Positions 21,010-40,862 of a DNA stretch of 64,000 bases are shown one piece after another. The stretch is taken from NCBI GenBank assembly GCA_040217195.1, contig JAVJNR010000005.1:512001-576000 (forward strand). The letters run 5' to 3'. Every line of letters starts with the position of its first letter. Position 1 is the stretch's first letter. Origin of the DNA: Leptospiraceae bacterium. Lineage in GTDB: Bacteria; Spirochaetota; Leptospiria; Leptospirales; Leptonemataceae. The translations under genes and the position numbers were made by a program. The notes below the pieces were generated by a model, which saw only the letters and a list, made by a program, of their open reading frames with translations, did no database searches and was not told where the DNA came from.

Positions 21010-21166
21010 CTGTTTCGATTAGGGATTGGGGCCTGGGCGCATTTCGCGACTATCGTAATGCGATTTCTAACTCTCAGAAAATTGGCTGTATTACGAATTC
21101 GGGGGATGGATCCTTAGAGGCATTACTAGAAATACGAAGAAAGGAACAAGAAAACTGTTGGGGACG

Positions 21167-22311: not shown

Positions 22312-22557
22312 CTAACGGGATTTGCTTTGCACTTGATGACTCAAGATTTCGGACAGACCGGCTGCCGCTTCTGCACTCATACGAACGTTGGTTCCGCCCT
22401 TTACGAGCCCATCGGAATCCACCAGGAGATGACGAATCTCCACTTCGTAGTTCGTAGCGCGCACCTGAACAGTGTTAGAATAGAATTCACCAAGCTGCAA
22501 TTCATTGCCGGCAGAATCCCTGGGAAATTTTAGTCGAGTGGTCTGATTCTTCTTCAT
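22312..22557 (-). CDS. Small hypothetical protein, DUF3467-like
   Basis: Strong GGAGG RBS before ATG 22557; the pattern YSNTVQV...VRMSAEAAAGL resembles DUF3467. Confidence 0.55.
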   Translation of the reverse strand: MKKNQTTRLKFPRDSAGNELQLGEFYSNTVQVRATNYEVEIRHLLVDSDGLVKGGTNVRMSAEAAAGLSEILSHQVQSKSR

Positions 22558-22691
22558 GATTGATCCTCCCACTCTATGTGTCTTGAGAAGCTGTTCCGTT
22601 CGAAAAAAGGAACCACCATCGCCCCTGAATTGGAAAGTAATTCATACTGTTTTGCTAAATCTCCGGGCCATTTTCAGTTTACCTGTTCCTT

Positions 22692-23270
22692 CTACTTGCT
22701 CATTCGGTTTTCTTCTGCGCGCTTCCTGGCTTCTTCGATCAACTCCCAGTCCGGCTCTTTCTGCCACCATTTGCGATTGTTCGGCCAATCCTTCAGATCC
22801 ACCTTCTCCAGGTTGGGACTGTTCGCAAGGATCGCTTCCATTAGATCACCACCACTGACGACGCCCACCCCGAACTCCAGGCTTCTTTTCGGGTCCTTGC
22901 TCCGCACCTTCACTATGCCTCCCAGGGCAAGGGCTTTATGCACGGCGACGATCTCATCGTAGTTGATACGGACCCAGTGTCGGAAAATCCGTTTACCTTC
23001 AATACCCTCTGCATCGCGCATTACCAGGTTTGATGTTTTAAACAATCCTAATAGGAAATCTCCGGTAAAGATAACCCCTCCCGCACCAAAAACGAAGAAT
23101 CCGAAGGTCCAGAAATTGGTCGGCTCCCTTATGAAATTGAGCGCTGAATGATAGATAATCGCCCAGCCCAATCCGAAAAACCATACAGAAACCACCGTTC
23201 CTACGATCAGGGAAATAGCGTTCCCGCCCACATTTCGGTGTCTTGCCGGTCTCATTGTATTCTTGGCCAT
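22692..23270 (-). CDS. 2-TM membrane protein with a soluble (bacterial PH-like) C-domain; candidate immunity protein
   Basis: GGAGG RBS lies inside the end of the giant gene, 19-bp overlap; two hydrophobic helices followed by ...WVRINYDEIVAV.... The immunity role is inferred from context. Confidence 0.6.
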   Translation of the reverse strand: MAKNTMRPARHRNVGGNAISLIVGTVVSVWFFGLGWAIIYHSALNFIREPTNFWTFGFFVFGAGGVIFTGDFLLGLFKTSNLVMRDAEGIEGKRIFRHWVRINYDEIVAVHKALALGGIVKVRSKDPKRSLEFGVGVVSGGDLMEAILANSPNLEKVDLKDWPNNRKWWQKEPDWELIEEARKRAEENRMSK

Positions 23271-26200
23271 GCTACCTCCCAGAATGCATCGTTCGCCAGG
23301 TCAAAGGGCATTGGCGTTACTGTGCCCTGAAGCCAATCGTTTGCCTGTCTTCCTTTATAAGAGTATTCGAATCGGGTCAGAGGCGCCGACCCTCGCGTTC
23401 CATAGATGCCAAGGGCCTGACTTCCCATGCCAAAGCCAGCTTGAATGAGTGTTCGGGTGAACCTTTCACTGCCCATTCCCCAGCCGTGTTCAGGCATTGT
23501 CTGATAGATCTCGTTTAATCCAAGGAACGCACCATTCCCAATAATCTTCCCCGTATCGTTCAACAATCGAGTACCACCGATAGCAGAAGAACCAGCGCCG
23601 GTAAAGAATCCCTGGCCAAACGAACTATAGGCATCACTCAATGTATATTCCTCGCCTTGCATCGATGCAACTGTCATGTCCAGAGGAATTTTTGCCGCAC
23701 CAGACGTTGCTCCGTTGATGGCCATGGAATTCAGAGTATATTTGTTTCTATAGACTTTGTTAAGGATGGCTCGTCCGGGTGCCGTGCTGCCAATCCTGGC
23801 TGCCATGCTGGATTTTCGGAACTTGTTGAATGCTCCCATTCCCAGGCGCAACTTATGGGCATTACTTCCCAATCTGGCTGCCTTATAGCCACGATAGGCC
23901 AACTTTCCTGCTGTAAATGCCTTCATTGCTCCCAGGGTTATCAACTCCGTGGTTACCATTTCCGCAATTTCATAATGAACCATTCCTCGTTTGTACCGAG
24001 TCTGAATCTCCGCACCCAGGATCGCACCAGTTTCCAGTCCATTTCCTTTTAGGACAGTGGCTATCTTCGCTCTAAGCCTTTCCTTTCGATCGGCAGCCTT
24101 TTGATCGAGCCTGGCTTCAAAAGCTTTCTGCTCTCGGGTTATCTGATCCCAGGATTTGTCGTTAACAAGGTATTTAGTCCTCTGAATGCCTTCGCGGAGC
24201 CAATATTTTAAGAAGCGTTCCGTCCCCTTGAATCGATCCTTAAAGCCATGCGCCTGGAAGCCTTCACCCAGATCGTATCGGTCAAGAGCCTCCTGCATGT
24301 GCTTTCTATAAATCAGATATTCCTGGTAACTTCCTTTGCCAAAGCGTTTATTCATGGATTTACGCAACCTATCTCGCATTCGCTCTTTTAGCTGATAGGC
24401 ATGGGATTGGCCCACTTTCGCAGGTGCATAAATATTCGTACCCTGGTAAAGAAACTCTGTTTTCTTGGCTCCATAGTGCTTGTGCATTTGTTTTGCACGC
24501 ACAATCCGCGCCAGAGGATGGGAGGAATCCACGCCTACTGAATCGCCACCTTCCTTGATACCACTTTGAATCGCTCCAAATGTCTCCCATGGACCCGGCT
24601 GCCTGCCCACTGTATCTGGTGCAGGTCCGGTCATTAGATCAGACCATTCTTTGTCCATTGCACCCAGGTTTTGAAGATTCTGTTCACTGAGCACCCGAGT
24701 TGGATCGCCACCGTATTTACGGATGACCAGTTCCGTTGCCTCTGCCACGGACATGCCGGCAGCCTGGGAAAGACGATCGATTTCAATGTAGCATTCCTCT
24801 TGAATGTTTCTATCCCCATGCTTGACTATTTCCGCAGCAGCCACATCTGCTGCAGAACTGAGCTTACCTTCCCTGGAGGATCTTCCCAATTGGCGGCTTC
24901 TAACCTTGATTGCTTTACGAACACTGGCTTTTCCATATGCTTCATTGAATCTCCTGGCCAGTTTCCGGGCCTTTTCTTCGTCCCTGGTTGCTCCCAGAAA
25001 AATGTCCAGTACCGTTTGTTTTCCCGATTCATCCCTGGTCCTCTTCGCTTCCTTCCAGGCTTTTCTAAGCCTTTTCTCCTTGTCTCTATTGGCTTGCGCT
25101 TTGAGTTCTTGGCCCAATCCAGCGTTCAGTGCACCTCCAACTATGCTTGTCCAGCTTTTCAATCCCGGGCTAACGCTGGCATTATAACTATGGTCCAGTC
25201 CCAGGCTCCGCCGCCCCAGTTCCCAGGTAGAATCCACCAAGCTTCCAGTCATGGAATTCAGAATGGAGTTGCGAAAGCCCGTTCCAAAACCATTTTCGCT
25301 TCCTTGAATCAAAGGCTTGGAACCAGTCATTTGATTACCGCTAGCTGCTGCGCTTATTCCGTAGGAGGTTAGCCCCGAAAGGATGCCTTTGCCCAGAGCA
25401 CGACCATCATGGTTTCCTCGCTGATATTCAGCCCGCGCTGCACCAATTCCGGCTCCCAGTGCTGAAGCCACCTGAGCCCAGCCTTTTGGCACAAGAGAAG
25501 ATCCCATTTCAGAAGCTCTGGCAACCAGGTCTCCGGTGGTAAATTCATAGGTTGAACGGCCAGTCCGAACGTCTGCTTTGATACCGGCGGTGAGTATTCC
25601 CGCCCCGGCAGAATACAGGCCCAGACTGGCGCCACCGTCCAGATATATGGCGCCGGCCTGGACTGCGGTGGCACCCAGGACCAGTCCACCGGCACGTATC
25701 AGCTTACCCCGATTTCTACCATAGACTCTGGTGCCCACTTCTAAATCATGATAGGCCTGCACAGAGCCCAGCTGCGCCTTGTTCATCGCCCCGGTAATAG
25801 GATCGATGAAAGGTCCGCGCTTCGCAATATTTTCAGAGCTCTTTCTGGATACCTGCTCATTCATAAACTTCATCTGTAGATAAAACCCCGGTATACCTGG
25901 CTGGCCTGGACGACTTTCTCCTCCCAGCTCTCCCAGCCCTCCGGCGAACTGATGGATCATCGCTGTAACTCCGGAATGCTGATTCGCCGCATGGTAGGAG
26001 CTAACGTCCTTGCCGGCCATCTGATCAGCCATCAAAGATGCCTTGCCATCCGGCGCTCTTCCCATCCAGCATCCGAAATCTCCGAGCACATCACAGTCCC
26101 GGGACCGGGCTCGAGAAACTTTTTCTCTAGTACTGCCAGCGATGCCCTGCATCCAATTCTGAGCTTTTAGTTTCTCTGTATGTAGTATGGCATCGAACTC

Positions 26201-29200
26201 GGGCTTCGAAACAGAATTCATCAAGGTGCGAAACTCTGGCCGGGACGAAAAAATCTCACTGTCTGCTTTGAAGCGATCTGCCTTCCCCTGAATGTCAAAA
26301 GGATTCACCGGATTGACCAGACCTACATTCCGCCCACCAAGCCCCTTCTTAAGAAAGACTCCATCCATCCTTACAAACCCGGAAGAGAGAGCCGCAGACT
26401 CCGTTCGATTCCTATAGGATTTATTTCGCTTCTGAATGGACTCAACAAATTTATCGATTAGATTTCTATACTCCTCCAGGACTTGAATTCGAGCCAATAC
26501 CTTCATCCTATTATTATGGTGATCCAGTTCTTGACGAAAATCCTTCATCAGATCAAAAGTATCTGGAGCTCCCAGCCCTCTTGATTCCATTTGAAGTTTA
26601 ACGTTGCTATCAAAACGTTCAATGCTTTCGTTGATTGATTCCAGGGATTCGCGATTCAAGGATTGGCGACTAACTTCTTCCACAGCATCATTGATGGTCG
26701 CTGCGCGATCAATTGTTGGTAAGTCGCTTTTCAGGGAGGAACGATGACTTCGAATCTGAGCATTCAATTCATCGATTTCTGCACCCAGATTTTCTCTAAT
26801 GGTCTTTTTTGCCAGTTCTTTGCGAAGCCGGTTTTCCCAGGCCGCCTTTTCAGCATGATGATTTTCAATCCGTGTATTCCATCGGTCTTCGGCAACTCTT
26901 ATCCTCTGTTCTTCCTCGCTTCGTGCATCATGCCACCTTGCCAGAAAGGCATTCTCTGCGGTAGCCCACTGATCCTGACCCCGGTCCATAATAGTCTCCA
27001 TTCTTTGTTCCCAGAGCTCTTTTGTGTGTTTCAGGGATTCTTCGCGCGCTTTCCAGCTCTCCTTTTGCAGTTTGCTCCTCTGCTCCAATTCCCGCTGCTG
27101 GATGGACTTTGCATTCTCCAGCTGATCCTGAAAAACTGTACGAAAACCCTGAAACTCTCGTCCGCCGTGCGATTTCCCGGTAGCTATTATACCTGAACCA
27201 GAGGCCCATTTCAGTAGCTTATGGATGGTACGGGAACGTTCAGAGAGTGCGAACTGGGGCTCGGCAGTCCTACCTTTTTCAATGTACTGTGATTTAGCTT
27301 CACTGCGAAGTGCATTGCCGTGACGAACCATGCTGGAAAGTAGCCGACCAAGGTTGTAAACCTCCTCCGTTTCCGCTTCCGCTGAAATTTCCGGGCGCTG
27401 CGTGGCCTGGCTTTCGAGATTGATTTGCACATTTGGCTGAATAACCTGCACCCCATCACCGGTGAGATCGTTCTCATGTAATCCCCCTTCCTTGGAGTTC
27501 GTTGAATCGCAAGAATGTCGTCTGCCGGTGGAACCGAAGCATTTTGCCTGCTCACTCAGTTTGGAAATATTAAGGGCATCATCTTGATCGTCCGGATTTA
27601 AAGAGGCCTGGTTCGGATCGGAGTCGTACAGATAGTTTAGTTCACCTTCGGTGATTTCGTAACCCAGAACATTTCCGAAGTCCCGGAGTCTTTTTTTCAT
27701 AATTCTAAGATTCGGTGCTTTTGTAAGATAATCCAGATTTGCCTGAGCTCGTTGATATCGCAACTCAGCCCTGCGAACTTCAGCTACCTTTGTATTATCG
27801 CCGACACGGCCTACATTTAGACTGGCTACCACTGAATTGATCTGCTGCAATACCAGCCTGGCTTCGCCCTGGGATAGCATCTTTGCAGCCTGTCGGTAAA
27901 CTGCCACACTGTGACTGGAGCCCACAAAGGCGCCCAGAACCGCTTCTGTGGCGGACTTATAGAGTACCGGAAGCCAGATGCTTCTAGTAATCTGGTTTTC
28001 CTTGATTGCCCGATCCAGGTGGCCAAGACTTTGTAGCCAATTCATATGTACCGGAACGTAGTTTTCGTATCCCAGAGCGGTAGCGCCTCCTGCTTTCATC
28101 CAGGTGCGAATCGCTTCTCTTTCCTTTGCACTCTTGCTTTCCCAACGGCTCAATCCCGTAGCAGCCACTAATTGTTGCATGGAGCTCCATTGGTACTGGG
28201 TCGGATCCAGATTGCCTCCCCAGATGGATCGATTGATTTCTCTGGCCACGGTGCCTGCGCCGTAGAACCAGGACGAGTACTCAGCTCCCAGATTCACAAC
28301 CACTTCAGAATCGCCATCGGGATCCAGGGGAGGAAGTTCATTTGAAATCATTCGATAAACGAAGTCCCGGGCATTCTTGCGCTCTCCATCGCTTCCAGGA
28401 CCAGTCATATCGCCGAAGTTCTGATTGAGCTTTTCCTGAAACCTGGCCTTTGCTTTTTGAACTACCGCCTTGCGCTTATCGATTTCGGCCTGAACCAATG
28501 TGGCCGCCTTTTCCAGTCTTACAGTGCGCTGAGTATGGAAAATATATTCTGCTCTTGCATCTATGAGTTCGCCGTAACGCTCATTCAGATCGCGCAGTGT
28601 CAAAAGGTATAATTCTGCTTCTTCGGCAATCTGCCACTCCGGAGCATCCTCTTCATCGTCCGAGTCCAGAAATCCCGGGTTGAATCCGTGGATTTCTTCC
28701 AGCTCTTCTCGATATTGCTCCAGTCCGTCCGAAAGCTCCCAGTCATCGGGATCGGCTCCCAGTTCGGCAATCTCCTGTAATTGCTCTATGCTAAGTTGTC
28801 CAAAGAGTTCTCGAATCACTTCGTAAGGCTGATGCCCTTCAAAATCGGAATGCTTGGACTCCTGGAGCTCTGTCAGCCTTTCCTGGTCCTCTTCTTCCAG
28901 TTCATCGTCCAGTAGATCGTTTCCATCTTTACGAAGTTGGGCTACTCTTGAGAAATCATCCAGATCATCCTGCAAAAGAACATCAAATCCAGCTTCTTTG
29001 AATTGTCGCTGGGTGGAGTTGTAGGCAGCCAGAGCGCGTTCAAATGCTTCGTCTGCATCCTCCGAGTGTAATTCATAGGCATCTATGGACTCTCCGGAGA
29101 CTTCTTCCGACTCATCGCCGGCTTCCTCTATGCCCCCCTCCGCTGAGTATTCCGTATTTGATGATCCATAACCGTTGGCTACACTCGAATCGGCAGATGC

Positions 29201-32200
29201 ATAAAGATACGGAGTATTCGCATATTCCTGGACTCGACTTCTAGTATCCAGTTCTTGCTGCGATGCATTCACCTTCTCGAAAAGGCCTGACATCTGATCC
29301 AGGGTGGAGGTATGGTCTTCCATAGCCTCCTGATACCTATCCCGCAGTTCATTGGCCTGCTCTTCTGCCTGCTCGTAGTCCGTTCGGGCTTCTTCATAGT
29401 CCTGTTCGACGGCTACCATAACAGTATTGAAATAGTCCCTCACTGCTCGATCCTGAGACTCCTGTCTTCTGCCGGCCTGAGCATATTCCTTCTGGGCCTT
29501 GCTCCTTGCAGAGAGGGCACTTTGATAAACCTGCTCCGCATTGACCCGATCCTGGGTAAGTCCATCAATCTGGCCTGTGAGAGCTGCATCCCTGACTTCC
29601 AGAGCATTCTTCAGATCCGCAACGTTTTCTTCGTTCTCCAGCAGGGTTTTAAGCTCTTCGTAATCCAGGTTCTCAAAATTATCTGAATTAATGGCCGCAG
29701 TCTCGTCGCCCGCCTCCAGATTCTCTTCGGATTCCACAAGCGCCTCAACGATTGCATCGCTCATCTCCGTTTCCAGAAGTGCATCCTGTTGGTCCTGTGT
29801 TGCCTGTGCCTGACCCAATACAGTTCTCAATGCATTGTGCAATTCGGATACATGGTCCAGGTAGTTGTTCGCCAGGTTCGCATAGTACACACGCTTCATA
29901 TCTTCCAGGCTTTCTACCTCACGACCGTTGTAAGGCATTACAGCCCGGATTGCCGGAGACCGGACTTCCAGGTCTGTGTCTTCACCGTTTTCCCAGATAC
30001 GACTATCGTCTACTGTCTCTGGATCCGCGCCCTGGGAAGGTGGATCGCTGGCAAGGATCTCCTCCCAACCATCCGAATCAAACAGGTTGTCCATGTTTCG
30101 GCCCTGAAGATCTACTTCTTCTACTTCAATGACAGCCGTTCCGGTCAGGTCTGCGAATTGCTGGAACTCCGTATAATCTTCCGGCTGCCCAACCGTAAGA
30201 CTGAGATGATCGGGCAATCCATCTTCAGCCGCAGCATCCCAGGAAGACTCTGCACGAATTTCTGGAGGACCCAGTCCATCTTTTGGAATCCAAACCGTTT
30301 CGCCGGCAGCCACCTTTTCCGTAATAGCGTCCAGAATTGGTCGGTCATTTCCTTCCAGATCCACAAAGATTCCAGGATTGTAGCTGCGCAGATAGTCGCG
30401 ATAGGAATTCAGCTGAGACTGACGTTCGGCCCCCACATAGGTTCTATAGTTCACAAAGCGATTCACTGTAAGATTTTCTTCGCCGTTGGAATCTGTAATC
30501 GATCCCCGAAGATCCGCAAACTCCGAAAGCCTGCTTGCAATCTTAAAATCTCTATCCGCCTGCCTGGCCAGACTCTCCAGTGCTTTGGTATCACTTCGAA
30601 GGTAGCCTCCCATGATCTCCATAATAAATGCAGAACCTTTGCCGGATTCGTCCAGACGCTCCTGCATTAAATCCACGCCACTTGTGGTTCCGGAGGACAG
30701 ATCCACTCGCAGGCGATTCTGTTTACCCTGACTGTTCTCAATCAGGGAATCCAGTTCGTCGCGCTTCGCATCGCTGATTGCATATTCGCCCATATAGGTT
30801 CGCCACAGAGATGCCTGATCCAGTATCCCCGCTTTGAACTGCGGGCCAAGACGGGAAATAAGATACTGAATTCCGTCCGCCACATCGGCACTGGAGAGTA
30901 TAGCTGGCAATCCTCCAGAAAGAGCTGCCTCATCCCCGCTTTCGAGAATGGCAGAAATCAAAGCTCGCCCCAGAGCCTGACGATTCTCTTTGAGAAGTTC
31001 AAAGTCCGCATCGCTCAACCTCTGAGAGAAATATCCCAGAGCCATGGAACTCATAGCCGGGATGGTTCCGGACTGAGCCAGATTCTGCATGGCCGAATGA
31101 TTCAGTGAGGTGGCTGCCTTATCGCTTCGTAGCTGAAGTTCTTCAGTTAAAAGCTCATCCTCATGCAGCACAGTCTTCAGTTCATCAAAGTCAGATTTCT
31201 CTTCAGCGCTGAGACTGTTGTAGAAATCGCTGTTTGCTCCGGAAGCTTTTTCAAGCAGACTCTGGACCAGATCGCCTCTCTGATTCAAATAATACGTAAA
31301 CAGCGGACTATCTTTGAAATCTGGATTTCCTTCCAGAGCCTGAGACACAGCGCCGCTAAGAGCATTTAGATCCCCCCCATGATCTTCTAAGAAGGCCTGA
31401 TGAATGAGCAGATCTCCCTCGGTGGGAAAGAAGTCCTCTGTAATGGCAGCTCTTTCTGTTTCTACGATAGCTGTCTGTAGATCGGCTCCGCCCACACTCT
31501 GATACGCAATATCCTGATTAATGTAGGATCGCACAAAACTCAGGGCCGGTTCGTTTAGGTGTTCGTAGCCAGTATCGGCCAGAATGCGATCCGTCAGTAG
31601 ACTATTCGCTAACTCGGATTTGCCATAGGTAATATCTGATACCGGGTGTCCGCCGGTTTCGAGAAGTGCAAGGATCTCTACAAAGTTCTCTTCGCCTCCC
31701 GAATCCGCCTGCGAAGAATCTGTAAGGGCCTCAGCCATAGCCAGATAATCCGAATGATTGGCCAGTATGTCTGCGAATTCATCTGGCAGCACATTGAATT
31801 CATCTGGCACAGGATCGTTTAATTCACCGTCCAGGAACCTCTGATACAGGGCTCCCGGAAGAAGAGAGTTCGCCTCCAGCTCCTGTCGCTGAATCTCAAA
31901 ACCCAGGTCTTCTAGGTAGGCTGTTTCATCTGTAGAGGCGATTCTCTCTCGCAGGCTTTTTCCATTTACGGAATAGGCCGGATCATCCAGAAACTGCTGG
32001 AATAGTACTGCGAAGGACTCCTTCTGTTCGGCTATGGTAGAGCCGGTAACGGTCTTATCTGCCAGAAAGTCCTTCAGTCGAAGACCAAAGATGTAATCCT
32101 GAAAATCTGCGCTGTATTCGCTTTCATCTGCCTCCAGCAGATTGTCTGGAAAGTCCGTGCCGGCCCTTGCATCTGCCTCGGCCTTCATTTCATTCCACTG

Positions 32201-35200
32201 GCGAACGGCCAGAATCTCATTTAGCAGGCCTGTTTGACGGGGCTCCATCTTTCTGGATTCAAAATAGGCCCCCAGGATTTCACTGTTCGAGAATCCAGAA
32301 AGACTGCTGAAAGCATCGAAGTCAGTTAGCGCAGAAGCATTATCCAGAAATGCATGAAAGTCCCGGGCCAGAATCTGCTTTTGAAAGAATACAGGGATTC
32401 CGTTCAGGTTAAGTCCAGGTCGTTCTTCCTCAGATACACTACCCGGTAGATCCTGTCCTTCCAGAAAATCCTGATAGCGCTTTTCGGCCAGCTCGCTGCC
32501 CCGAACCACCAGTAGATTGACGAATTCCTCTGGATAGCTTTCTGGATTGAAAGCCTCTTTGCTGGATTCGGAGTTAAAGCTTTGCAGCGCTATGATAAAG
32601 GCTTTCTCTTTCTGAGTATCGGTGAGCGCAGCCAGTTCCCCATCCCAGGCCCCGTTCTTTCCGTCTTCACCTTTGAGATACGAAAAGAGCATCTGAGCGG
32701 TGAGAGCCGCCTGCATCATTTCATCCAGGGAGGAAGTCAGACTAGACTTCGCATCGTTCAATTCTTGAATGAGAGCAGCCTTCAGAGCATCGCCAGTGAG
32801 TTCCGGCTCATTTACCATTATTTCCATGATAATGCTTCTGGACAGGGAACCAGAAGCCAGTTCCGGAAGTTTAGCCGTAAGCAGACTTCGCAAAGTCTCA
32901 TCGCTGTCTGGATCGCTGGGCGATTCTTCCTGCCCCTCGGACTCCTTCAATGTCTCCAGGGAGCCGCTATCCGCCAGATTTTCAATCCTGGATATGGCAA
33001 TTTCAAAGTCCACATTCTGACTCTGATTCAGATAGTACTCTGGATCTCTTTCTGCTTCAAAGTCATTGCTCGGGTTCAGCTCTGCCTGAAGCTGTGATTG
33101 AAAACTGGACAATGCAGAAGCCAGAACTTGATCCGCTTTATAATTTCTCAGTAGCTCATGGGCATCTTCGTAAAGCGAAAGCCTTTGCGCTATGGCTTCC
33201 GGCACATCTGTTTTCTCATCTCCGTCTACATTTCTACGAGCTTCTTCTTCCAGAAGCTCAAAGTTCTCCTGAGAATCCAGAATCGCAAGTATGGCCGATG
33301 GAGAGGCACCGTTTTGCAATGCTTCCATTAGCTGATCTTCAAAGCCTTTCCAGGCAGGAAGGACTTCCTGAAGATGAGCGGAGTTTCGCTTCATGCGATC
33401 CGCCCGATCTTTGATCTCTTCCACAGAAGAGTCCCGCATATCTATGATTTCACGAGCCGCAGCCACCTCGATTAGATGCCCCTGAAGCATCATGATGGCC
33501 GCCTGCATCTCCTCAGACAGGCGTCCGCTGTTGTCTGGATTGGATGCATAGTCCAACAGGTTCTCGGACAGAGCTTCCAGAACAGGCCCTGGCAGGCTTT
33601 CATTCAAGACACCTGCAATATCATCGATGGACTCAACATCGGTGAGTCCCAGAGATGCGAAATCATCAGATATCAGAAAGGTATCGCCGCTCTTGCGTGC
33701 CTCGCCGCGAATATCAGGAACAAAAACTCCCAGAGCCAGTCCCAGGGTTTCAATTACAGGAACTGGGTCCTGATTCTGATTATTGTCCTGATCAAGAATC
33801 TGTCTTTTCTGCTGATCCTCGTTCAGTTGCTTCATTTCCTCTTCGAAGAAACCGCTAACTGCATTCATGAACTGAGAGCTACTGCCTTTTCCCTGCTTCA
33901 GTTCCTGTAGATAAGCACTCAGCCTGCGAATCTCAGCCTGACGAGCCTCCACATCTGGCTTCGCTGCATCGATTATATCCTGGAGTTCCTCTATGCGCTC
34001 TTCCAGAACGGCCATGTCGGAAGCATACTTCGCTTCCAGGTTCCCTCGTTCTGTGGCATCGGCAGCGCCATCGATTGCTTCGCGCATTTCCAGAAGTTGA
34101 GTGCGAAGAAGATTGATCCTGGCCTGAGTTTCCCCGTATTCCGGATGGGCTTCCGCCAGTTCTTTTTGAGCTTTATGAATCCGGCGGGTTAGATTCTTCG
34201 CTTCTTCTCTTTCAAAAATGAGTTCGAAATCTGTGTCCAGTTGATCCAGGTCTCTTTGAATTAAATCTCGAATCTGATTTAAATCTCTTCTTAGATAAGT
34301 GCTGTTGCCAGTGCGAATTCCACTGTAGCCCAGTAACAGTTCTCGCTCATCGGTATTGAGTCCGTAAAAAACATCTTCTATGTTTGCATCATCCGAACTC
34401 AAAACAGTATCCAGAGTATCCCGTAGATCTTCTCGTTCGGTTCTAAACTCCGTTACCCAGGCATCGCCGCTGGATTCTGGCTTGCTGTTTTCGAACTCCA
34501 GCCAGTAAGTGGAGCTCTCTTCCACACGATCCAGTTGTGCAAGCAATGCATCCCACCGTTTTTCTTTGGGTGTGGGATCATCCGAGTCCGGCTCTTCGTT
34601 GGCCGCATCGATCAGATCCCGGCTGTCTATGATCCAATCCTTACTGAATCTAAGAGAGGCGACGGTTTCGCTTGCTTCCGGATCCTCTCCGTCTGCGGTA
34701 ACATCGGTCACAGCGGTAGCGATGTCGGAGTCGCTGGCTGCAATCATGGCGCTGTAGGAATTCCCGCGATGATCTGTAAGGAATTGCTTTAAATCACCGG
34801 CAACGAGTTCTGCAAATTCCAGCATATCATCTCGAAGCTCTTCGCTTCGATCCTTCAATTCATCATTTGTGGGAACCTCGCTTTCGTCCGGCTCTCGATC
34901 CAGCTTTTTGAGTAGCGCCAGCCGAACAGCCTCCTCTGTAGACTTTAGAACGTCCTGAAGTCGGGTGATGTCCTTCTCCAGATCCGCAAGAGCTCGCTGC
35001 TTCTGGTCCTCGGCATGGGCTTTTTCTTCCGCATTCACATCTTCGTCGTCGATGGTTTCTTGAAGAGACTCCAGAAGGTCCAGGCGGCCCTGAAGCGAAC
35101 TGAGTGCGCTGGAGACCGTAGGACTTGCTGCTTTTGCAATATCCTCTTTGATCTCCAGAATAGCCTCGGCCCGGGCCTGAACATTTTCCGGCGCAGGGGC

Positions 35201-38200
35201 TCCCTGGGGATAGTCCTCCGAGCTTTGCAGATCTCGCAGGGCTTCACCGGCTTGCACGGTATTGTTCAAAGCTTCTACAAGTCCCAGTGCCTGCCTGGTT
35301 TGCTCTCGATTGTAGGCGCTTTCGTTCTTCTCACGAATGGTATCAAAATAATCGTCTTTCGCGGATTCCACCTGAGTTTGTAGAGGTATATCTGCTGCAT
35401 CCTCTACACTTTTCATCTGAGTCATCACAGCTCCCAGAGCACTGGCTGCGTTTCGCAGCTCTATCTGGATCAGTTCCTGAGCTTCGCCAGAATTCTGAAT
35501 CTCCAGATCTATTCTGGCCTGCTTGTAAGCTTCCCTGGATTCATTCAGGCGCTCTTCTGCCAGACGGAGAGTATCCGTAGTGGATTCCAGATCGTCTTTC
35601 AGATCTCCCAGGGCATCACTTCTCTGCTTTAGATTGGGCTGCGAAAGAGCGGTCCGAATAAGCTCCCGCTCTTCTGAATAGTTAAACTCTCCGGCCAGCT
35701 TTTCCATTTCCAGAGACAGAGCACGGGCCGTTCCATGCAGAGCTTTCCATCGGTTGGCAAGTGTGGATGCACTTGCATTTCCGGATAGTATCTCATCTCG
35801 AAAGGATTGCAGTCGGGAGCGAAACGGAAGCAATGGATGGGCGGAAGCATCGTCGCCACTGAACTCAGCCAGTAGAGTTCCGAGCTCTGCCAGCATTTCG
35901 TTTACATCATCTACGTCCGGAACCGTTTCTGCATCCAGTCCAGCCACATCGGAGATAAAGTCTGAACTGGACTGTAGATTTTCGCCTCTGGCTGCATACA
36001 GCTCAAAGTCTGTTTGTTCTTGAATAAGTTGTTCAATTAGTGCTTCATAAGCTGCTGGATCTGCGTCCGGATCCATGCCCTGGAGCTGAAGGGCCAGAGC
36101 TCCCGCTTCCCCGGCCGTTACATCATAGGCCAGCTGAAGTAGATCTGTTTTTGTCTTACTGGCCTGTACTCTCCAGTCTGTAACCGCAGCCATTTCCAGG
36201 CCGGCTCCGTGTTTTTCGGCTATATCTGCGTAATGTTTTACTCTACGAGCTCGCTCCAGTCTCTGAGCCTGACGATCCCGTTCCCGACGAAGGACTTCCC
36301 ATTCGTATTTCGCATCGGTCATCAAGTAGGGATCATTGGCATTACCCGTAATGTGCTGCCGATACAGTCCATCTTCCAGTTTTCCCAGGATCAGTTCCCG
36401 AAGACGCAGATCCTCCTCTGTGGACTTGTTGAAGAACTCGCTAGCTATGGCTGTTTTGATATCTGCCAGTGCTTGCTCTCGTAATTGCTTCGCAGCCTGA
36501 TCTTGCGCGGATCCTTCTTCTACATCTTCCGGCCAGAGTTCTTCTGCTCCGCCTTTCTGCTTGATAATGTCATTGATGAGCTTCGTGATTTCAATACCAT
36601 GTTCCAGATATTCCTTATCTAGACCGGCAACCAGCTCACGTATCTCCTGGATGCTGTCCATAGCTTCATAATTGAAGTCCTGGCTGTTCTGTAGCTCCTG
36701 CGCTCGCTCTACAAAGAGTCTGTTGGAGCGAATGTCGCTTTCCATGTCTCGCACATACAGAGCGTAGTTGGTTCGATTCTCTTCGTTCGCGAGCCAGTTC
36801 AGGAGCTTTTCTCGAAACGTCTCTTCGTCGAACTCTTCCAGTTCCTCTCTTAAATCCTCACCGAACTGCCGCTGATCATTCAGTAATCCAGAGGAAGAGT
36901 CTTCCGAATACAGAGTTCCATGCAATTCTTCCTGGGCTCGAAGCAGAATCAATTCGAATCGATCGATGGACTCAGCCATCTCCTGCTCTTCCTCTGTATA
37001 GAAATCCTTGAGTCGATCATTGTTCGTGGATGAGTCTCCCAGTAGCTCCAGAAGCTCCTGGTAATAGGCCTGGGCCTCCTTCGCTTCCAGAAGAGCTGCT
37101 CCGCCTCCGCGAACCATACTTGCCAGCTGTTCGGAAGAACCATTCCAGCGATCCCTTTCCTGATCTATGTAATCCTGAAGATCTGCCTCGGCCTGTGCAC
37201 GATTCTCCTCGAATTCCTGATATTTCGCTGCGTATTTCGCCCGGCCTTCTTCGATCTTTGTTCGTACAGCCTCAAGCCAGTCATCTCTCGCGCTTTTGAG
37301 CTTCTCGTGTTCTTCTTTCCAGATTTCTTCGGCTTCTGCGCGAGAGGTCTTTGTGGCTTCCATCCAGACAAGCCGATCCTGATACAGATCTTCTTCTGCT
37401 TCTTCGAATACCTGAAGCCCCTGGCTGATAATCTCCTCAACCTGTCTCTGATACTCCAGAGGATCCGGACTGCCTTCTTGAGAATTCAGAGCTTCTTCGC
37501 TCTGCTCCAGCAGGGCTGCGGTTTGCTCTTCTACCTGGATTTGCGCATTTTCTATAGCCTGATCGCCAATCTCTTCTGCGGAACCGGATTCGCTCTGCAC
37601 TTTAGCGCTGAGATCATCCGATCGTTTCAGAGCTATGTAGCGGTTCTTGGCTTTAAGAAGATAGAAATGCTCACGCATCTCAAACTTATTTCGAATCTCC
37701 GCTTCTTTCTCTGCAATGGCCTGGTCCAGAGCTTCAATCTGGGTATCGTCCAGAGGACCTATGTTGTCTCTTGCTTCCGCAATCCTGGCTTCCAGGTCCG
37801 TTTCAAAAGCCTCAACAAGGCTTTCATTCAATCCTTCTACAAGACTCTCCCAGCTATCCAGCTCCAGTTCCGGATTATTCTCGAAGGCAGCCTCCGCGGT
37901 GGAAATGATCTCTTGATACTCCTGTTCCGATATCTCAAGGCCTTCGATATTCTCTTGCTTTACACGAAAATCCGCTTCCCGTTCTAATATTAGCTGCGAA
38001 GCTTCCGTTTCCCAGTCTATACGGGCTGTTTCATATTCTGTATCCAGAGCATCCAGTTCTTCTTCTTGCTCATCCTCATCCAGATCGTCTTCACGAATAC
38101 GATCCTGGCGATCCTGAATCTCCTCAGCCGCATCTTCTTCCCAGTCTGCTTTTAGTGATATGAGACCTGCCTGTACATAGCTCCGCCACTGATCCAGATC

Positions 38201-38359
38201 CTGCATATTTGTGGCGCGATTCAGATAGCTTTCCAGAGCCTTCTTATCTTCGCCATCGAAGTCTCGGAATGGTTCAGCAACGAGGCCGGGAGGGAAAACA
38301 AAGATGGTAAGAAAATTAAGGATCAACCAGAAGCTTATGGATTTTTGAATCCAGTTCAT
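23252..38359 (-). CDS. Giant secreted alpha-helical protein (5035 aa), TIGR04388-like; candidate polymorphic toxin carrier
   Basis: 15.1-kb ORF; Sec-type leader MNWIQKSISFWLILNFLTIFVFPPGLVA; long acidic coiled-coil regions; Gly/Ala-rich hydrophobic and basic C-terminal part. The family label comes from recalled N-terminal similarity only. Confidence 0.75.
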   Translation of the reverse strand: MNWIQKSISFWLILNFLTIFVFPPGLVAEPFRDFDGEDKKALESYLNRATNMQDLDQWRSYVQAGLISLKADWEEDAAEEIQDRQDRIREDDLDEDEQEEELDALDTEYETARIDWETEASQLILEREADFRVKQENIEGLEISEQEYQEIISTAEAAFENNPELELDSWESLVEGLNESLVEAFETDLEARIAEARDNIGPLDDTQIEALDQAIAEKEAEIRNKFEMREHFYLLKAKNRYIALKRSDDLSAKVQSESGSAEEIGDQAIENAQIQVEEQTAALLEQSEEALNSQEGSPDPLEYQRQVEEIISQGLQVFEEAEEDLYQDRLVWMEATKTSRAEAEEIWKEEHEKLKSARDDWLEAVRTKIEEGRAKYAAKYQEFEENRAQAEADLQDYIDQERDRWNGSSEQLASMVRGGGAALLEAKEAQAYYQELLELLGDSSTNNDRLKDFYTEEEQEMAESIDRFELILLRAQEELHGTLYSEDSSSGLLNDQRQFGEDLREELEEFDEETFREKLLNWLANEENRTNYALYVRDMESDIRSNRLFVERAQELQNSQDFNYEAMDSIQEIRELVAGLDKEYLEHGIEITKLINDIIKQKGGAEELWPEDVEEGSAQDQAAKQLREQALADIKTAIASEFFNKSTEEDLRLRELILGKLEDGLYRQHITGNANDPYLMTDAKYEWEVLRRERDRQAQRLERARRVKHYADIAEKHGAGLEMAAVTDWRVQASKTKTDLLQLAYDVTAGEAGALALQLQGMDPDADPAAYEALIEQLIQEQTDFELYAARGENLQSSSDFISDVAGLDAETVPDVDDVNEMLAELGTLLAEFSGDDASAHPLLPFRSRLQSFRDEILSGNASASTLANRWKALHGTARALSLEMEKLAGEFNYSEERELIRTALSQPNLKQRSDALGDLKDDLESTTDTLRLAEERLNESREAYKQARIDLEIQNSGEAQELIQIELRNAASALGAVMTQMKSVEDAADIPLQTQVESAKDDYFDTIREKNESAYNREQTRQALGLVEALNNTVQAGEALRDLQSSEDYPQGAPAPENVQARAEAILEIKEDIAKAASPTVSSALSSLQGRLDLLESLQETIDDEDVNAEEKAHAEDQKQRALADLEKDITRLQDVLKSTEEAVRLALLKKLDREPDESEVPTNDELKDRSEELRDDMLEFAELVAGDLKQFLTDHRGNSYSAMIAASDSDIATAVTDVTADGEDPEASETVASLRFSKDWIIDSRDLIDAANEEPDSDDPTPKEKRWDALLAQLDRVEESSTYWLEFENSKPESSGDAWVTEFRTEREDLRDTLDTVLSSDDANIEDVFYGLNTDERELLLGYSGIRTGNSTYLRRDLNQIRDLIQRDLDQLDTDFELIFEREEAKNLTRRIHKAQKELAEAHPEYGETQARINLLRTQLLEMREAIDGAADATERGNLEAKYASDMAVLEERIEELQDIIDAAKPDVEARQAEIRRLSAYLQELKQGKGSSSQFMNAVSGFFEEEMKQLNEDQQKRQILDQDNNQNQDPVPVIETLGLALGVFVPDIRGEARKSGDTFLISDDFASLGLTDVESIDDIAGVLNESLPGPVLEALSENLLDYASNPDNSGRLSEEMQAAIMMLQGHLIEVAAAREIIDMRDSSVEEIKDRADRMKRNSAHLQEVLPAWKGFEDQLMEALQNGASPSAILAILDSQENFELLEEEARRNVDGDEKTDVPEAIAQRLSLYEDAHELLRNYKADQVLASALSSFQSQLQAELNPSNDFEAERDPEYYLNQSQNVDFEIAISRIENLADSGSLETLKESEGQEESPSDPDSDETLRSLLTAKLPELASGSLSRSIIMEIMVNEPELTGDALKAALIQELNDAKSSLTSSLDEMMQAALTAQMLFSYLKGEDGKNGAWDGELAALTDTQKEKAFIIALQSFNSESSKEAFNPESYPEEFVNLLVVRGSELAEKRYQDFLEGQDLPGSVSEEERPGLNLNGIPVFFQKQILARDFHAFLDNASALTDFDAFSSLSGFSNSEILGAYFESRKMEPRQTGLLNEILAVRQWNEMKAEADARAGTDFPDNLLEADESEYSADFQDYIFGLRLKDFLADKTVTGSTIAEQKESFAVLFQQFLDDPAYSVNGKSLRERIASTDETAYLEDLGFEIQRQELEANSLLPGALYQRFLDGELNDPVPDEFNVLPDEFADILANHSDYLAMAEALTDSSQADSGGEENFVEILALLETGGHPVSDITYGKSELANSLLTDRILADTGYEHLNEPALSFVRSYINQDIAYQSVGGADLQTAIVETERAAITEDFFPTEGDLLIHQAFLEDHGGDLNALSGAVSQALEGNPDFKDSPLFTYYLNQRGDLVQSLLEKASGANSDFYNSLSAEEKSDFDELKTVLHEDELLTEELQLRSDKAATSLNHSAMQNLAQSGTIPAMSSMALGYFSQRLSDADFELLKENRQALGRALISAILESGDEAALSGGLPAILSSADVADGIQYLISRLGPQFKAGILDQASLWRTYMGEYAISDAKRDELDSLIENSQGKQNRLRVDLSSGTTSGVDLMQERLDESGKGSAFIMEIMGGYLRSDTKALESLARQADRDFKIASRLSEFADLRGSITDSNGEENLTVNRFVNYRTYVGAERQSQLNSYRDYLRSYNPGIFVDLEGNDRPILDAITEKVAAGETVWIPKDGLGPPEIRAESSWDAAAEDGLPDHLSLTVGQPEDYTEFQQFADLTGTAVIEVEEVDLQGRNMDNLFDSDGWEEILASDPPSQGADPETVDDSRIWENGEDTDLEVRSPAIRAVMPYNGREVESLEDMKRVYYANLANNYLDHVSELHNALRTVLGQAQATQDQQDALLETEMSDAIVEALVESEENLEAGDETAAINSDNFENLDYEELKTLLENEENVADLKNALEVRDAALTGQIDGLTQDRVNAEQVYQSALSARSKAQKEYAQAGRRQESQDRAVRDYFNTVMVAVEQDYEEARTDYEQAEEQANELRDRYQEAMEDHTSTLDQMSGLFEKVNASQQELDTRSRVQEYANTPYLYASADSSVANGYGSSNTEYSAEGGIEEAGDESEEVSGESIDAYELHSEDADEAFERALAAYNSTQRQFKEAGFDVLLQDDLDDFSRVAQLRKDGNDLLDDELEEEDQERLTELQESKHSDFEGHQPYEVIRELFGQLSIEQLQEIAELGADPDDWELSDGLEQYREELEEIHGFNPGFLDSDDEEDAPEWQIAEEAELYLLTLRDLNERYGELIDARAEYIFHTQRTVRLEKAATLVQAEIDKRKAVVQKAKARFQEKLNQNFGDMTGPGSDGERKNARDFVYRMISNELPPLDPDGDSEVVVNLGAEYSSWFYGAGTVAREINRSIWGGNLDPTQYQWSSMQQLVAATGLSRWESKSAKEREAIRTWMKAGGATALGYENYVPVHMNWLQSLGHLDRAIKENQITRSIWLPVLYKSATEAVLGAFVGSSHSVAVYRQAAKMLSQGEARLVLQQINSVVASLNVGRVGDNTKVAEVRRAELRYQRAQANLDYLTKAPNLRIMKKRLRDFGNVLGYEITEGELNYLYDSDPNQASLNPDDQDDALNISKLSEQAKCFGSTGRRHSCDSTNSKEGGLHENDLTGDGVQVIQPNVQINLESQATQRPEISAEAETEEVYNLGRLLSSMVRHGNALRSEAKSQYIEKGRTAEPQFALSERSRTIHKLLKWASGSGIIATGKSHGGREFQGFRTVFQDQLENAKSIQQRELEQRSKLQKESWKAREESLKHTKELWEQRMETIMDRGQDQWATAENAFLARWHDARSEEEQRIRVAEDRWNTRIENHHAEKAAWENRLRKELAKKTIRENLGAEIDELNAQIRSHRSSLKSDLPTIDRAATINDAVEEVSRQSLNRESLESINESIERFDSNVKLQMESRGLGAPDTFDLMKDFRQELDHHNNRMKVLARIQVLEEYRNLIDKFVESIQKRNKSYRNRTESAALSSGFVRMDGVFLKKGLGGRNVGLVNPVNPFDIQGKADRFKADSEIFSSRPEFRTLMNSVSKPEFDAILHTEKLKAQNWMQGIAGSTREKVSRARSRDCDVLGDFGCWMGRAPDGKASLMADQMAGKDVSSYHAANQHSGVTAMIHQFAGGLGELGGESRPGQPGIPGFYLQMKFMNEQVSRKSSENIAKRGPFIDPITGAMNKAQLGSVQAYHDLEVGTRVYGRNRGKLIRAGGLVLGATAVQAGAIYLDGGASLGLYSAGAGILTAGIKADVRTGRSTYEFTTGDLVARASEMGSSLVPKGWAQVASALGAGIGAARAEYQRGNHDGRALGKGILSGLTSYGISAAASGNQMTGSKPLIQGSENGFGTGFRNSILNSMTGSLVDSTWELGRRSLGLDHSYNASVSPGLKSWTSIVGGALNAGLGQELKAQANRDKEKRLRKAWKEAKRTRDESGKQTVLDIFLGATRDEEKARKLARRFNEAYGKASVRKAIKVRSRQLGRSSREGKLSSAADVAAAEIVKHGDRNIQEECYIEIDRLSQAAGMSVAEATELVIRKYGGDPTRVLSEQNLQNLGAMDKEWSDLMTGPAPDTVGRQPGPWETFGAIQSGIKEGGDSVGVDSSHPLARIVRAKQMHKHYGAKKTEFLYQGTNIYAPAKVGQSHAYQLKERMRDRLRKSMNKRFGKGSYQEYLIYRKHMQEALDRYDLGEGFQAHGFKDRFKGTERFLKYWLREGIQRTKYLVNDKSWDQITREQKAFEARLDQKAADRKERLRAKIATVLKGNGLETGAILGAEIQTRYKRGMVHYEIAEMVTTELITLGAMKAFTAGKLAYRGYKAARLGSNAHKLRLGMGAFNKFRKSSMAARIGSTAPGRAILNKVYRNKYTLNSMAINGATSGAAKIPLDMTVASMQGEEYTLSDAYSSFGQGFFTGAGSSAIGGTRLLNDTGKIIGNGAFLGLNEIYQTMPEHGWGMGSERFTRTLIQAGFGMGSQALGIYGTRGSAPLTRFEYSYKGRQANDWLQGTVTPMPFDLANDAFWEVAWPRIQ

Positions 38360-38470
38360 GAGACGCTCTCCAAAAAAGAATTATTATCGAGCGTCGCTAT
38401 ACGAGCGAATGTTGAGCCTAAATGGCAAAAGAGCGAAAAGGGCAGGATTCGAGCGCAGTGGCTCGACTTC

Positions 38471-39058
38471 TCAGGGCCGCATACGATTTTTCCCGGTCAC
38501 CTTCTCATCGGATGAACTGGCCGACGTTTGTTTCTGTGAAAGCAACCTGGACAGCAGGATTCTCAACCCTTCCATTATATCGGACCGATTCACCGACTTC
38601 AATTCTTCCTGATGCAACGATCCTTGAGCAACCGTAGAGCCCCGAACTAGATCCAGAATCTCAAGAGAAATAGTAATCGAAAACGTTCTGCGAATCAAAG
38701 TCTCCTCTGGTCGAATGTCTAATTCGCCGCGCAACCAGTATCGACCAATGTAACTTCGATTAAGCATCAATAGCCCCTTTCTGTTAAGAAAACCATCAGA
38801 AGTTCGAAACCGATCCATATTCGCATCCAGAACCCGGGGATCCACTCCGCGTCGGCGCAGGGAAAAAATTAAACTGGATAAAAGAGAGGATCTATCAATA
38901 AACCTGGACGAAAGGCCTTGCATGGCGATATTTCCCAGACCGATTCTTCTGGTCTCCGGCGGGTTGTCCGAAAACCAGAATCGGGAATTCCAGTCCCGAC
39001 ATCCAATCATCAAAAAAACGCATAGCAATGACAGAACGATTCGCTTTAGTGACAACAT
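38471..39058 (-). CDS. Lipoprotein, possibly CsgG/LpoB/TolB-N-like fold
   Basis: Lipobox LMIGC; alpha/beta pattern ending ITISLEILDLVRGSTV; overlaps the upstream gene. Confidence 0.6.
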   Translation of the reverse strand: MLSLKRIVLSLLCVFLMIGCRDWNSRFWFSDNPPETRRIGLGNIAMQGLSSRFIDRSSLLSSLIFSLRRRGVDPRVLDANMDRFRTSDGFLNRKGLLMLNRSYIGRYWLRGELDIRPEETLIRRTFSITISLEILDLVRGSTVAQGSLHQEELKSVNRSDIMEGLRILLSRLLSQKQTSASSSDEKVTGKNRMRP

Positions 39059-39597
39059 CGCACTCCCAGTCTGGGACTTTCCTTTTGGGGAGAGACTCTG
39101 CGAAACGTAAAGCAGTCAGCCATTCCTATGATGACCGGATCCCCTTCGGGCCCGGATACCCATTCGGCAGCATTACCCGCCATATCCGAAGGTGCATTTG
39201 GACTTCCGGAGCAGGCAGCACCTGTTGGCAAAATCCCGGACCTATCGGAGCAGGCCTTTGATTGTTGAGCTTCAGCGGCCTTGCAGGCCCATATCCATTC
39301 CCGGTAGTTGCAAATCCGAGCAGCGGATGCAGAACACAGCCTTTTTGCTTCTTCATAATTAATATTTGTAAGCGGTATCAGTCCCTGTCCTCCAGGGGAT
39401 TTGGAAGCACTCTTCGCACGTTCAAAACGTTCTATTCCATAATTCACTCCAAACAACTGAAGGTAACTCACATAGGGTACATCTACCTTTCTTTCAGAAG
39501 TATGCACCCTCCGATCTCTGCCTTCCTTCGTAGAGATTCTACAATTTGACAAGGAAATGGAAAGAATGCAAATGCCTGCGATAATCAAAAGACGCAT
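39046..39597 (-). CDS. Short FGE-sulfatase (SUMF1)-like domain lipoprotein
   Basis: Lipobox LSNC; NINYEEAKRLC, REWIWACK, DMAGNAAEWV and LGVRCC motifs. Confidence 0.75.
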   Translation of the reverse strand: MRLLIIAGICILSISLSNCRISTKEGRDRRVHTSERKVDVPYVSYLQLFGVNYGIERFERAKSASKSPGGQGLIPLTNINYEEAKRLCSASAARICNYREWIWACKAAEAQQSKACSDRSGILPTGAACSGSPNAPSDMAGNAAEWVSGPEGDPVIIGMADCFTFRRVSPQKESPRLGVRCCH

Positions 39598-40220
39598 CAA
39601 GACCTTCCCCCAATTCGTCCAGGTTTGTCTGACAGAAACCTTACTTCCTTTAGAATCCGCTCTTTTCCGGACGGACCGCCCAGACTATGATCGGCGATTC
39701 CCCGAAATCTTTGCCCGGGTGCACGGAAAGAAATTCGTTTCCATATCTGGCCTTCGCAAACTCCCCGAATCAGGTCCTTTTCAGTCCCCGGGTTCTTTAG
39801 AGTAATTTCACAGACTACTGGATGCCGAAACTCCGCACCAGATCTATCATCCGACAATTCTTTGAATCGGATCGAACGCAGAGCATCGATTCGAAACTCT
39901 CGATTGGCTCCGGACTGAACCACCACTATCTTCCTGGCAGGCAATGCAAGCAATCCTTCGAATCTAGCATCCGAGAATCGAATCAGAGCACTTTGAATTA
40001 ACCTTTGATTTTTCTGTGCCGACGCCTTCTTTACATCCTGCGTACCAGGCGGCAATATCTCTAATTCCGCGCGCATCTCATTCAGGATTTCTGAGGGCTC
40101 TTTATCATCTGTAAGAAAATCTTCGCCCTGAATTGCTCTGACCGAAAGGATGGCAATGACGAGAATCGAGGCTCTGGCAAAACGGGTGTAAAGGTACTCT
40201 GGTTTACTTTTGACGCACAT
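39597..40220 (-). CDS. Hypothetical exported protein
   Basis: ORF with a hydrophobic leader (ASILVIAILSVRA) abutting the next gene; start uncertain (40220 vs 40355). Confidence 0.55.
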   Translation of the reverse strand: MCVKSKPEYLYTRFARASILVIAILSVRAIQGEDFLTDDKEPSEILNEMRAELEILPPGTQDVKKASAQKNQRLIQSALIRFSDARFEGLLALPARKIVVVQSGANREFRIDALRSIRFKELSDDRSGAEFRHPVVCEITLKNPGTEKDLIRGVCEGQIWKRISFRAPGQRFRGIADHSLGGPSGKERILKEVRFLSDKPGRIGGRS

Positions 40221-40787: not shown

Positions 40788-40862
40788 TTGACCTGCGGCC
40801 AAAGGCCTAGTCCCGCACCGGACCGATTTCGATTCCAGGCCAATCCTGCGACGCGCACCGAC

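Follow-up and report, generated by a model that had tools for sequence, protein, structure and literature searches.

A giant exported protein with exchangeable tips in a Leptospiraceae genome: a candidate interbacterial polymorphic toxin system linked to an RND-TolC operon

What would a spirochaete do with an exported protein of 5035 amino acids (aa), encoded downstream of two lipoprotein genes and overlapping at its end with the gene for a small membrane protein? We examined this question for a locus on the minus strand of a 64,000-nucleotide window, by which we mean the whole stretch of DNA analysed (G000:C4:512001-576000), from the 4.6-Mb, 94%-complete genome of a Leptospiraceae bacterium, a marine relative of Leptospira. 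An original prediction, made from the letters alone, had read the locus as a contact-dependent antagonism system with a giant carrier, a C-terminal toxin and a coupled immunity gene. We consider it likely that the locus is an interbacterial polymorphic toxin system, in which a carrier with an exchangeable tip would leave the cell through a resistance-nodulation-division (RND), adaptor and TolC machine, damage the inner membrane of a rival and be countered by a two-transmembrane (2-TM) immunity protein; for the carrier family as a whole, assignment to the polymorphic toxins is highly probable. At the level of sequence comparison, members of the family agree in their N-terminus and differ in their tips; downstream genes are coupled to the tips, cassettes also occur as orphans, alleles have been exchanged, and the family co-occurs and is linked with an RND-TolC operon. 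All six co-oriented genes first noted were found on the minus strand at the positions given then:

39597..40220, minus strand: exported accessory protein, family not known, first of a conserved trio (open reading frame, ORF)
39046..39600, minus strand: FGE/sulfatase-modifier-like Cys-rich lipoprotein, second of the trio (PF03781, alignment, synteny)
38471..39058, minus strand: second lipoprotein, predicted PelC/CsgG-type fold, predicted envelope or export accessory (AlphaFold2, Foldseek, VIA-align)
23252..38359, minus strand: 5035-aa carrier, entire gene (ORF, homologue comparison)
22692..23270, minus strand: 192-aa 2-TM protein of the inner membrane, C-terminal domain soluble, predicted immunity partner of the tip (overlap, co-travel, co-folding)
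22312..22557, minus strand: 81-aa small DUF3467-like protein, passenger of the cassette (DUF3467 match in homologues)

The two ends of the carrier differ sharply in how far they are shared. Its first 500 aa match in 23 of 41 relatives, whereas the last 500 aa match in five, all of its own genus; phylum-wide, the N-terminal profile matches 100 of 401 Spirochaetota genomes, 55 of them outside the order. Clustering of the last 200 aa of 33 rows, two of which the source flags as partial and four or more of which duplicate other rows, yielded 20 tip classes. Two paralogues (G005b and G002_C20) are 83-95% identical over aa 1-400 and 0-19% over the last 535 aa, and the gene that follows them differs from the 2-TM gene, while three syntenic orthologues keep both the tip (68-80% over aa 4801-5035) and the 2-TM gene (71-78%). 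The pattern expected by the original prediction, a conserved N-terminus with variable C-termini and downstream genes, is thus borne out by alignment; uniformity of C-terminus and downstream gene across homologues, which would speak against it, was not found, as both tips and partners vary.

Some tips can be named, and the prediction of a polymorphic toxin layout holds in that some are known toxin domains followed by typical immunity genes. Pfam families were matched in 10 of 27 scanned tips, including an Ntox30 tip (E 9e-26) followed by a HEAT protein gene, a Tox-PL-like tip (below cut-off) followed by an Imm35 gene, and tips assigned to PT-HINT with Peptidase_M91, C39, Lipase_3 (followed by ankyrins) and UPF0102; the genes after tips include those for Imm35, ankyrin, HEAT and leucine-rich repeat (LRR) proteins. 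In orders outside its own, M23 and C39 tips could be named, and tips there are mostly followed by exported LRR, SH3, F5/8-like or unnamed proteins. Weighing against the toxin assignment, 17 of the 27 tips scanned first and 16 of the 18 from other orders have no Pfam match.

Cassettes also occur apart from full carriers. Six genomes (G014, G024, G027, G029, G032 and G035) have full carriers followed by carrier fragments with their own downstream gene, and comparison of G035 with G032/G029 shows that full carrier and orphan have exchanged their downstream partners. The genome studied here carries an orphan cassette (C10:286390-288220), in which part of a conserved carrier block and a tip of 28% identity are joined by paralogues of the 2-TM gene and of the 81-aa gene. 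The related carrier P0014 is 94.9% identical to ours over aa 1-3000 and 98-100% over aa 4301-4600; identity then falls to 34-50% at aa 4601-4800 and stands at 69.5% in the tip. P0005, listed on a contig as long as that of P0014, is 75% identical to the 2-TM protein. From this allele switch near aa 4600, taken with the identity of P0005, we infer a recent exchange of a tip and immunity cassette. An export signal with a conserved N-terminus, variable tips from toxin families, a tip-linked downstream gene and orphan cassettes, features by which polymorphic toxins are recognized, are all present.

Several further observations concern the mobility and number of these loci. A second carrier locus in G005 (C4, L018-L019) is 97.9% identical over 24 kb to that in G002 (C20, L020-L021), while neighbouring core genes of the two species are only about 70% identical; recent horizontal transfer of this locus is likely. 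At G000:C10:288236-289213 and L076:9389-11456, the orphan cassette and a lone 2-TM paralogue in G004, respectively, adjoin a gene that looks like an Rpn-type recombinase. One genome (G024:C1) holds three long carriers and about ten TIGR04388-type carriers, several with orphan arrays, and a scan of genome contigs, with one distant carrier as the query, returned two loci only. In G003 (L083:600-3118), a carrier fragment ends in a different Gly-rich tip and is followed by a 181-aa membrane protein laid out like the 2-TM protein, and in G342 a Gly-rich tip is followed by DUF6585.

The targets of these tips bear on another explanation, namely that the carriers serve at the surface as structural or adhesive fibres, or act as effectors on protists or fungi, and that the downstream genes encode chaperones. 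The size of the carrier and the immunoglobulin-like (Ig-like) lipoproteins encoded with it across the family would suit a fibre. PT8, a validated toxin domain specific to Leptospiraceae, was found to act on bacteria and also on fungi (10.1101/2021.10.19.465003, in the parts consulted), and is not tied to carriers in our data. The main-text parts examined of that report name no export route for PT8. On the other side, cell-wall-type tips (M23 and C39) precede genes for exported partners, some toxin-immunity pairs belong to named families, orphans form arrays, and cassettes have been swapped. These features point to conflict of bacterium with bacterium and leave a role as fibre or anti-eukaryotic effector very improbable.

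Which kind of toxin would the present carrier bear? Its tip has no Pfam family and no significant PDB sequence match, and a search of 1.84 billion representatives with its profile gave five matches, of which one is a repeat protein with no relation to it. The 2-TM gene has its own GGAGG site, overlaps the carrier gene by 19 bp, encodes two hydrophobic helices and accompanies this tip class, the orphan on C10 included; the protein matched nothing significant in a PDB sequence search. Co-folding of tip and 2-TM protein gave an ipSAE of 0.69, whereas none of three controls exceeded 0.00. In calibration, 116 of 157 solved pairs reached the ipSAE mark, as did 2 of 215 mismatched ones; for our own alignments this holds only roughly. 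The runs share at least 83% of contacts, with a partner predicted local distance difference test (pLDDT) score of at least 84, and place both transmembrane helices of the 2-TM protein against tip aa 4919-4974. The models thus predict that the two bind through membrane helices, and such binding would suit a toxin that acts on the membrane and is countered there. Colicin-type pore-formers are neutralized in this way, by immunity proteins that bind them within the membrane. In the ESM Atlas, the tip reached 0.90-0.91 to unnamed clusters, with recognition below threshold, and the 2-TM protein 0.94 to unnamed and DUF5381 clusters; both are leads only.

We think that this tip is probably a membrane toxin from which the 2-TM protein protects kin. 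Three observations count against this. The tip is modestly hydrophobic (best 19-residue Kyte-Doolittle mean 0.84), the AlphaFold2 model of the last 450 aa of the carrier is all helix at a poor pLDDT of 44, and each of the four syntenic orthologues in the genus retains this tip class, with purifying selection acting on it (dN 0.18-0.22; dS 1.8-3.0, near saturation), which fits recognition or anchoring too. The pair could accordingly serve allele-specific kin recognition or membrane anchoring in a family that otherwise bears toxins, rather than form lethal pores; IdsD and IdsE of Proteus are a kin-recognition pair of this type. While the lack of a known toxin family or fold would suit this alternative, it is made unlikely by the nuclease, peptidase and lipase-like tips that the same carriers bear at this position, and by the occurrence of the pair as an orphan cassette and of the 2-TM gene alone in G004, like orphan immunity genes. 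A membrane toxin with its immunity protein remains our preferred account of the pair.

From its N-terminus to the tip, the carrier can be divided as follows:

38276..38359, minus strand: predicted Sec signal peptide, aa 1-28 (hydrophobic stretch, conserved cleavage region)
36680..38272, minus strand: family-defining N-terminal domain, aa 30-560, with many invariant Trp (alignment)
27560..36679, minus strand: acidic, predicted mostly helical stalk, aa 560-3600 (composition, periodicity)
25100..27559, minus strand: second conserved block, aa 3600-4100, then a Gly/Ala-rich hydrophobic segment at about aa 4200-4420 (homologues)
24500..24560, minus strand: allele-exchange breakpoint near aa 4600 (P0014 identity profile)
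23255..23932, minus strand: tip domain, aa 4810-5035, Gly-rich, amphipathic, of no known family (Pfam/PDB, selection, co-folding)

The signal peptide that had been called on the 5035-aa protein is of Sec type. Among aligned homologues its cleavage region is kept in 20 rows of 21, and the one that lacks it comes from a gene split in pieces, of which it is the second. The N-terminal domain found nothing significant in a PDB sequence search. The stalk shows patchy similarity to carriers of other genera, and the block at aa 3600-4100 is common to distant carriers and orphan cassettes. A hydrophobic segment comparable to that at aa 4200-4420 was present in all ten full carriers examined, and the region 25100..27559 is predicted to be a membrane-crossing module. 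The first 3600 aa are acidic (net charge -17 to -67 per 400 aa) and the last 1000 basic. Neither half of the protein gave a significant Pfam domain or any match to RHS, haemagglutinin, RTX or HINT, in agreement with the absence of RHS, haemagglutinin and RTX motifs noted originally, and no internal repeats were found; a match to SMC (E 5e-4) was taken as generic helical similarity. Heptad periodicity exceeds that of shuffled sequences at aa 401-1600, 2801-3200 and 3601-4000 and not elsewhere, and a fatty-acid-synthase-like protein, used as a control, gives similar values. As the periodicity is over parts of the length no stronger than in this enzyme, the test indicates amphipathic helices rather than one long coiled coil, and the coiled-coil stalk originally envisaged is supported only in part. 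A mostly helical carrier is supported.

The original prediction had suggested a test against the TIGR04388 (Lepto_longest) profile, which gave a divided answer. It matches the carrier over aa 38-204 (E 2.7e-6), in keeping with N-terminal homology, at 25.2 and 28.7 bits, below the curated cut-off of 45, and membership was accordingly rejected. The reciprocal profile matches TIGR04388-type proteins at 1e-9 to 1e-13. By these alignments, the carrier is a divergent sister clade of TIGR04388, with which it weakly shares its N-terminal 200 aa and which adjoins a sister TolC-RND cluster; TIGR04388 proteins are mostly 1800-3200 aa long, whereas members of this clade reach 3800-5100 aa in Leptospirales, and the present copy lacks HINT. 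LA_3725 of Leptospira interrogans was noted to carry PT-HINT in the consulted part of PMC4751964, which also mentions polymorphic toxins. According to the parts seen of PMC2387172 and PMC5406399, LA3725 is LIC10502, LA3733 is LIC10496 (both PMC2387172), and LIC10496 is called TolC-like (PMC5406399); LIC10502 thus lies six locus numbers from a TolC, and is likened to our carrier by description and not by sequence.

How might such a protein leave the cell? The original prediction left the export route unknown and saw no TpsB, type I or type VI secretion genes; for type I genes this holds within the window, and the rest of the genome supplies a specific candidate for the route. The trio upstream of the carrier recurs across the family, often beside an operon for a tetratricopeptide repeat (TPR) lipoprotein, TolC, an adaptor, two Big_5 (Ig-like) lipoproteins and two AcrB-type permeases, sometimes also with Yip1 and LIC10494-family genes. 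In our genome such a TPR-TolC-adaptor-2xIg-2xRND operon occupies C10:319013-331944, and some 31 kb separate it from the orphan cassette. The order supplied 139 genomes that are at least 90% complete, 40 of them with a long carrier (E<1e-70); the operon TolC was matched (E<1e-35) in 39 of the 40 carrier genomes and in 2 of the 99 others. Of the 39 matches, 21 have a carrier no more than 30 kb away (in two cases a partial one), two lie far away and 16 are on other contigs, this genome included. A FastTree phylogeny places 33 cluster TolCs in a single clade (support 99), separate from the seven other TolCs of this genome and including a subclade located beside TIGR04388 proper.

The linkage extends beyond the order. 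We read 20 of the 55 loci found there, selected for longer contigs, and in 12 of these, TolC and RND genes lie within 20 kb upstream of the carrier, with the second RND gene immediately before a co-oriented carrier in G284, G319, G351 and G365; in the remaining eight, a TolC or Ig-lipoprotein match lies elsewhere or partly adjacent. The Ig-lipoprotein was matched in 48 of 55 carrier genomes outside the order and in 23 of 255 others. Long-carrier operons keep the TM4 aspartate in both permeases; in both TIGR04388-linked operons examined, the second permease (L142:2170-5097 and L143:15426-18584) is degenerate and has lost its proton-relay motifs. Since the operon co-occurs with carriers, lies upstream of them in these 12 distant loci and is present elsewhere in this genome, it is the likeliest export route that we can name, and we lean somewhat towards export of the carrier through it.

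A number of points tell against this route. The operon in our genome is on a different contig from the carrier, the TolC cut-off was picked after viewing the score gap (33 of 40 at 1e-40, 40 of 40 at 1e-30), and the counts include kin that are not independent and are inflated by linkage on mobile islands. G011 (C1:121871) and G055 (C43) have TolC and Ig-lipoprotein matches without a detected long carrier, which may reflect other cargo, an unassembled gene or an orphaned machine. AcrB-type pumps are not known to move proteins. GspD, the secretin of the type II secretion system (T2SS), scores over cut-off in this genome, and a polymorphic toxin carrier could leave the periplasm by that route while the RND-TolC machine serves in folding, anchoring, retraction, uptake of incoming carriers or small-molecule export. 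In the available part of Zhang et al. (PMC3482391), T2SS/Sec is treated as the default for toxins with signal peptides. The RND-TolC route further presumes that a TolC channel can pass a 5000-aa substrate. A housekeeping route leaves unexplained why one TolC clade tracks the carrier (39 of 40 against 2 of 99), three genus relatives with two carriers have two TolC copies, and RND genes directly adjoin the carrier in the four genomes named above; we therefore regard exit by T2SS as rather unlikely, and favour the linked machine.

A profile of the exported protein of the trio (39597-40220, whose ORF is open as far back as 40355) matches 16 of 41 relatives and always adjoins the other two trio genes in the loci read; the protein has no Pfam, NCBIfam or significant PDB sequence match. 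The FGE-sulfatase family (PF03781) matches the second protein at E 0.012 here and at 3e-6 to 2e-12 in homologues. For the lipoprotein 38471-39058, the AlphaFold2 model (pLDDT 86) has PelC as its best Foldseek match (E 2.5e-8), followed by CsgG and FlgT, and VIA-align superimposes it on PelC (Z 14.4, rmsd 3.3, 146 residues aligned) and on the curli complex (Z 11.8, rmsd 4.9, 128 aligned). Because its PelC sequence match was unstable (E 9e-4 in one alignment, 0.4 in a deeper one), we rely on the fold search alone, and a PelC/CsgG fold is predicted. The likeness to these ring lipoproteins lies in the predicted fold, at 11-21% identity, and a common fold does not establish function. The lipoprotein is a distant relative of the LIC10494 family, one of its homologues matching NF033169 (E 9e-5).

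Following synthesis, we propose that Sec would take the carrier into the periplasm, where two RND permeases, facing that compartment and powered by protons, might work with adaptor, TolC and the lipoproteins to export or display it. The helical stalk would present the C-terminal part at the surface for delivery on contact, and the Gly/Ala-rich segment would likely assist membrane crossing. The tip would then probably act on the inner membrane of a rival unless the 2-TM protein, its predicted binder, is present to shield kin. More broadly, and with less assurance than for the locus itself, we suggest tentatively that paired RND permeases, adaptor, TolC and Ig-like, TPR and PelC-fold lipoproteins could constitute a phylum-wide spirochaete secretion system that displays Sec-exported, helical, toxin-tipped fibres of 2000-5000 aa.

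Several known systems resemble this one in part. In CdiA/CdiB systems, a giant stalk exported by Sec bears a toxic tip that is matched by a cognate immunity protein, which for pore-forming tips is a membrane protein. The carrier differs in having no haemagglutinin or two-partner secretion (TPS) domain, no adjacent TpsB and a helical rather than beta-helical build, and contact-dependent inhibition by two-partner secretion was ruled out, since Pfam found neither TPS domain nor haemagglutinin repeats in either half; PF03865 (TpsB) had no match in the genome, though controls did not match either. An Rhs/type VI effector was ruled out by the lack of RHS/YD and PAAR in the carrier, and PF05954 (VgrG-type) was not found in the 94%-complete genome, where controls matched in only 2 of 14 cases. 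MdtABC-TolC is a paired-RND pump with TolC, an adaptor and two tandem AcrB-type permeases. The carrier-linked operon has the same four components, to which it adds, relative to both this pump and type I secretion, the TPR lipoprotein, two Big_5 lipoproteins and a PelC-fold lipoprotein. Type I secretion differs also in using an ABC rather than an RND transporter, and the linked cargo here has a Sec signal; a type I substrate was ruled out by the signal peptide, the absence of RTX and the AcrB-type inner-membrane parts.

Neisseria MafA/MafB/MafI loci have an upstream lipoprotein gene and orphan cassettes. MafB likewise has a signal peptide, a lineage-specific N-terminal domain and polymorphic tips, as far as the available text of PMC3482391 describes it; the carrier is about ten times longer, has no DUF1020 match and is tied to an RND-TolC operon, and membership was rejected for want of a DUF1020/MafB-N Pfam match. 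With the polymorphic toxins as described in the same available text, the carrier family shares a signal peptide, conserved N-terminus, variable toxin tips, immunity genes, orphan cassettes and, in some relatives, HINT, and differs in its lack of RHS or filamentous haemagglutinin repeats and its predicted helical stalk. Leptospir-, TolC, RND and T1SS do not occur in the main text of PMC3482391 as far as it is available.

The last gene of the locus appears to travel with its cassettes. The 81-aa gene is present in 9 of the 139 genomes, all nine of them carrier-positive, and in the cassettes read it comes after the 2-TM gene or after a gene for some other membrane protein; its DUF3467 label comes from matches (E about 0.016) in only two homologues. 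Sequence related to the locus is contained in marine metagenome runs, in four of which contigs jointly cover most of the locus, none spanning the whole and none listed with the tip-swap joint. No RNA runs with the locus were listed among public runs, and no plasmid match was found; homologues are labelled by their sources as Spirochaetaceae or Leptospiraceae bacterium. Elsewhere in the window, positions 40857-41099, intergenic and upstream of the locus, hold a 65-bp GC-rich unit in 3.8 tandem copies (88% matches), and positions 4791-22213 hold genes for a 3313-aa type I fatty-acid-synthase-like protein and a 1941-aa carboxylase-like protein (both by eye) and an AraC regulator, which are syntenic in G005 and G002 and replaced in G004.

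Our literature search, which mostly did not cover subscription journals, found no description of this carrier system and no paper on interbacterial toxin-immunity systems in Leptospira. Within the literature searched, the locus thus represents an undescribed carrier type of polymorphic toxin system with a candidate RND-TolC export route. The longest Leptospira proteins, so far without an assigned function, gain a proposed one, and the family reaches other spirochaete orders with a testable export machine named. Were this machine to secrete the carriers, AcrB-type pumps would move giant proteins besides small molecules, and the vaccine candidate TolC LIC10496 and its neighbour LIC10494 would be reinterpreted as likely parts of a competition system. 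The tips of these carriers, in turn, offer a pool of unannotated antibacterial domains.

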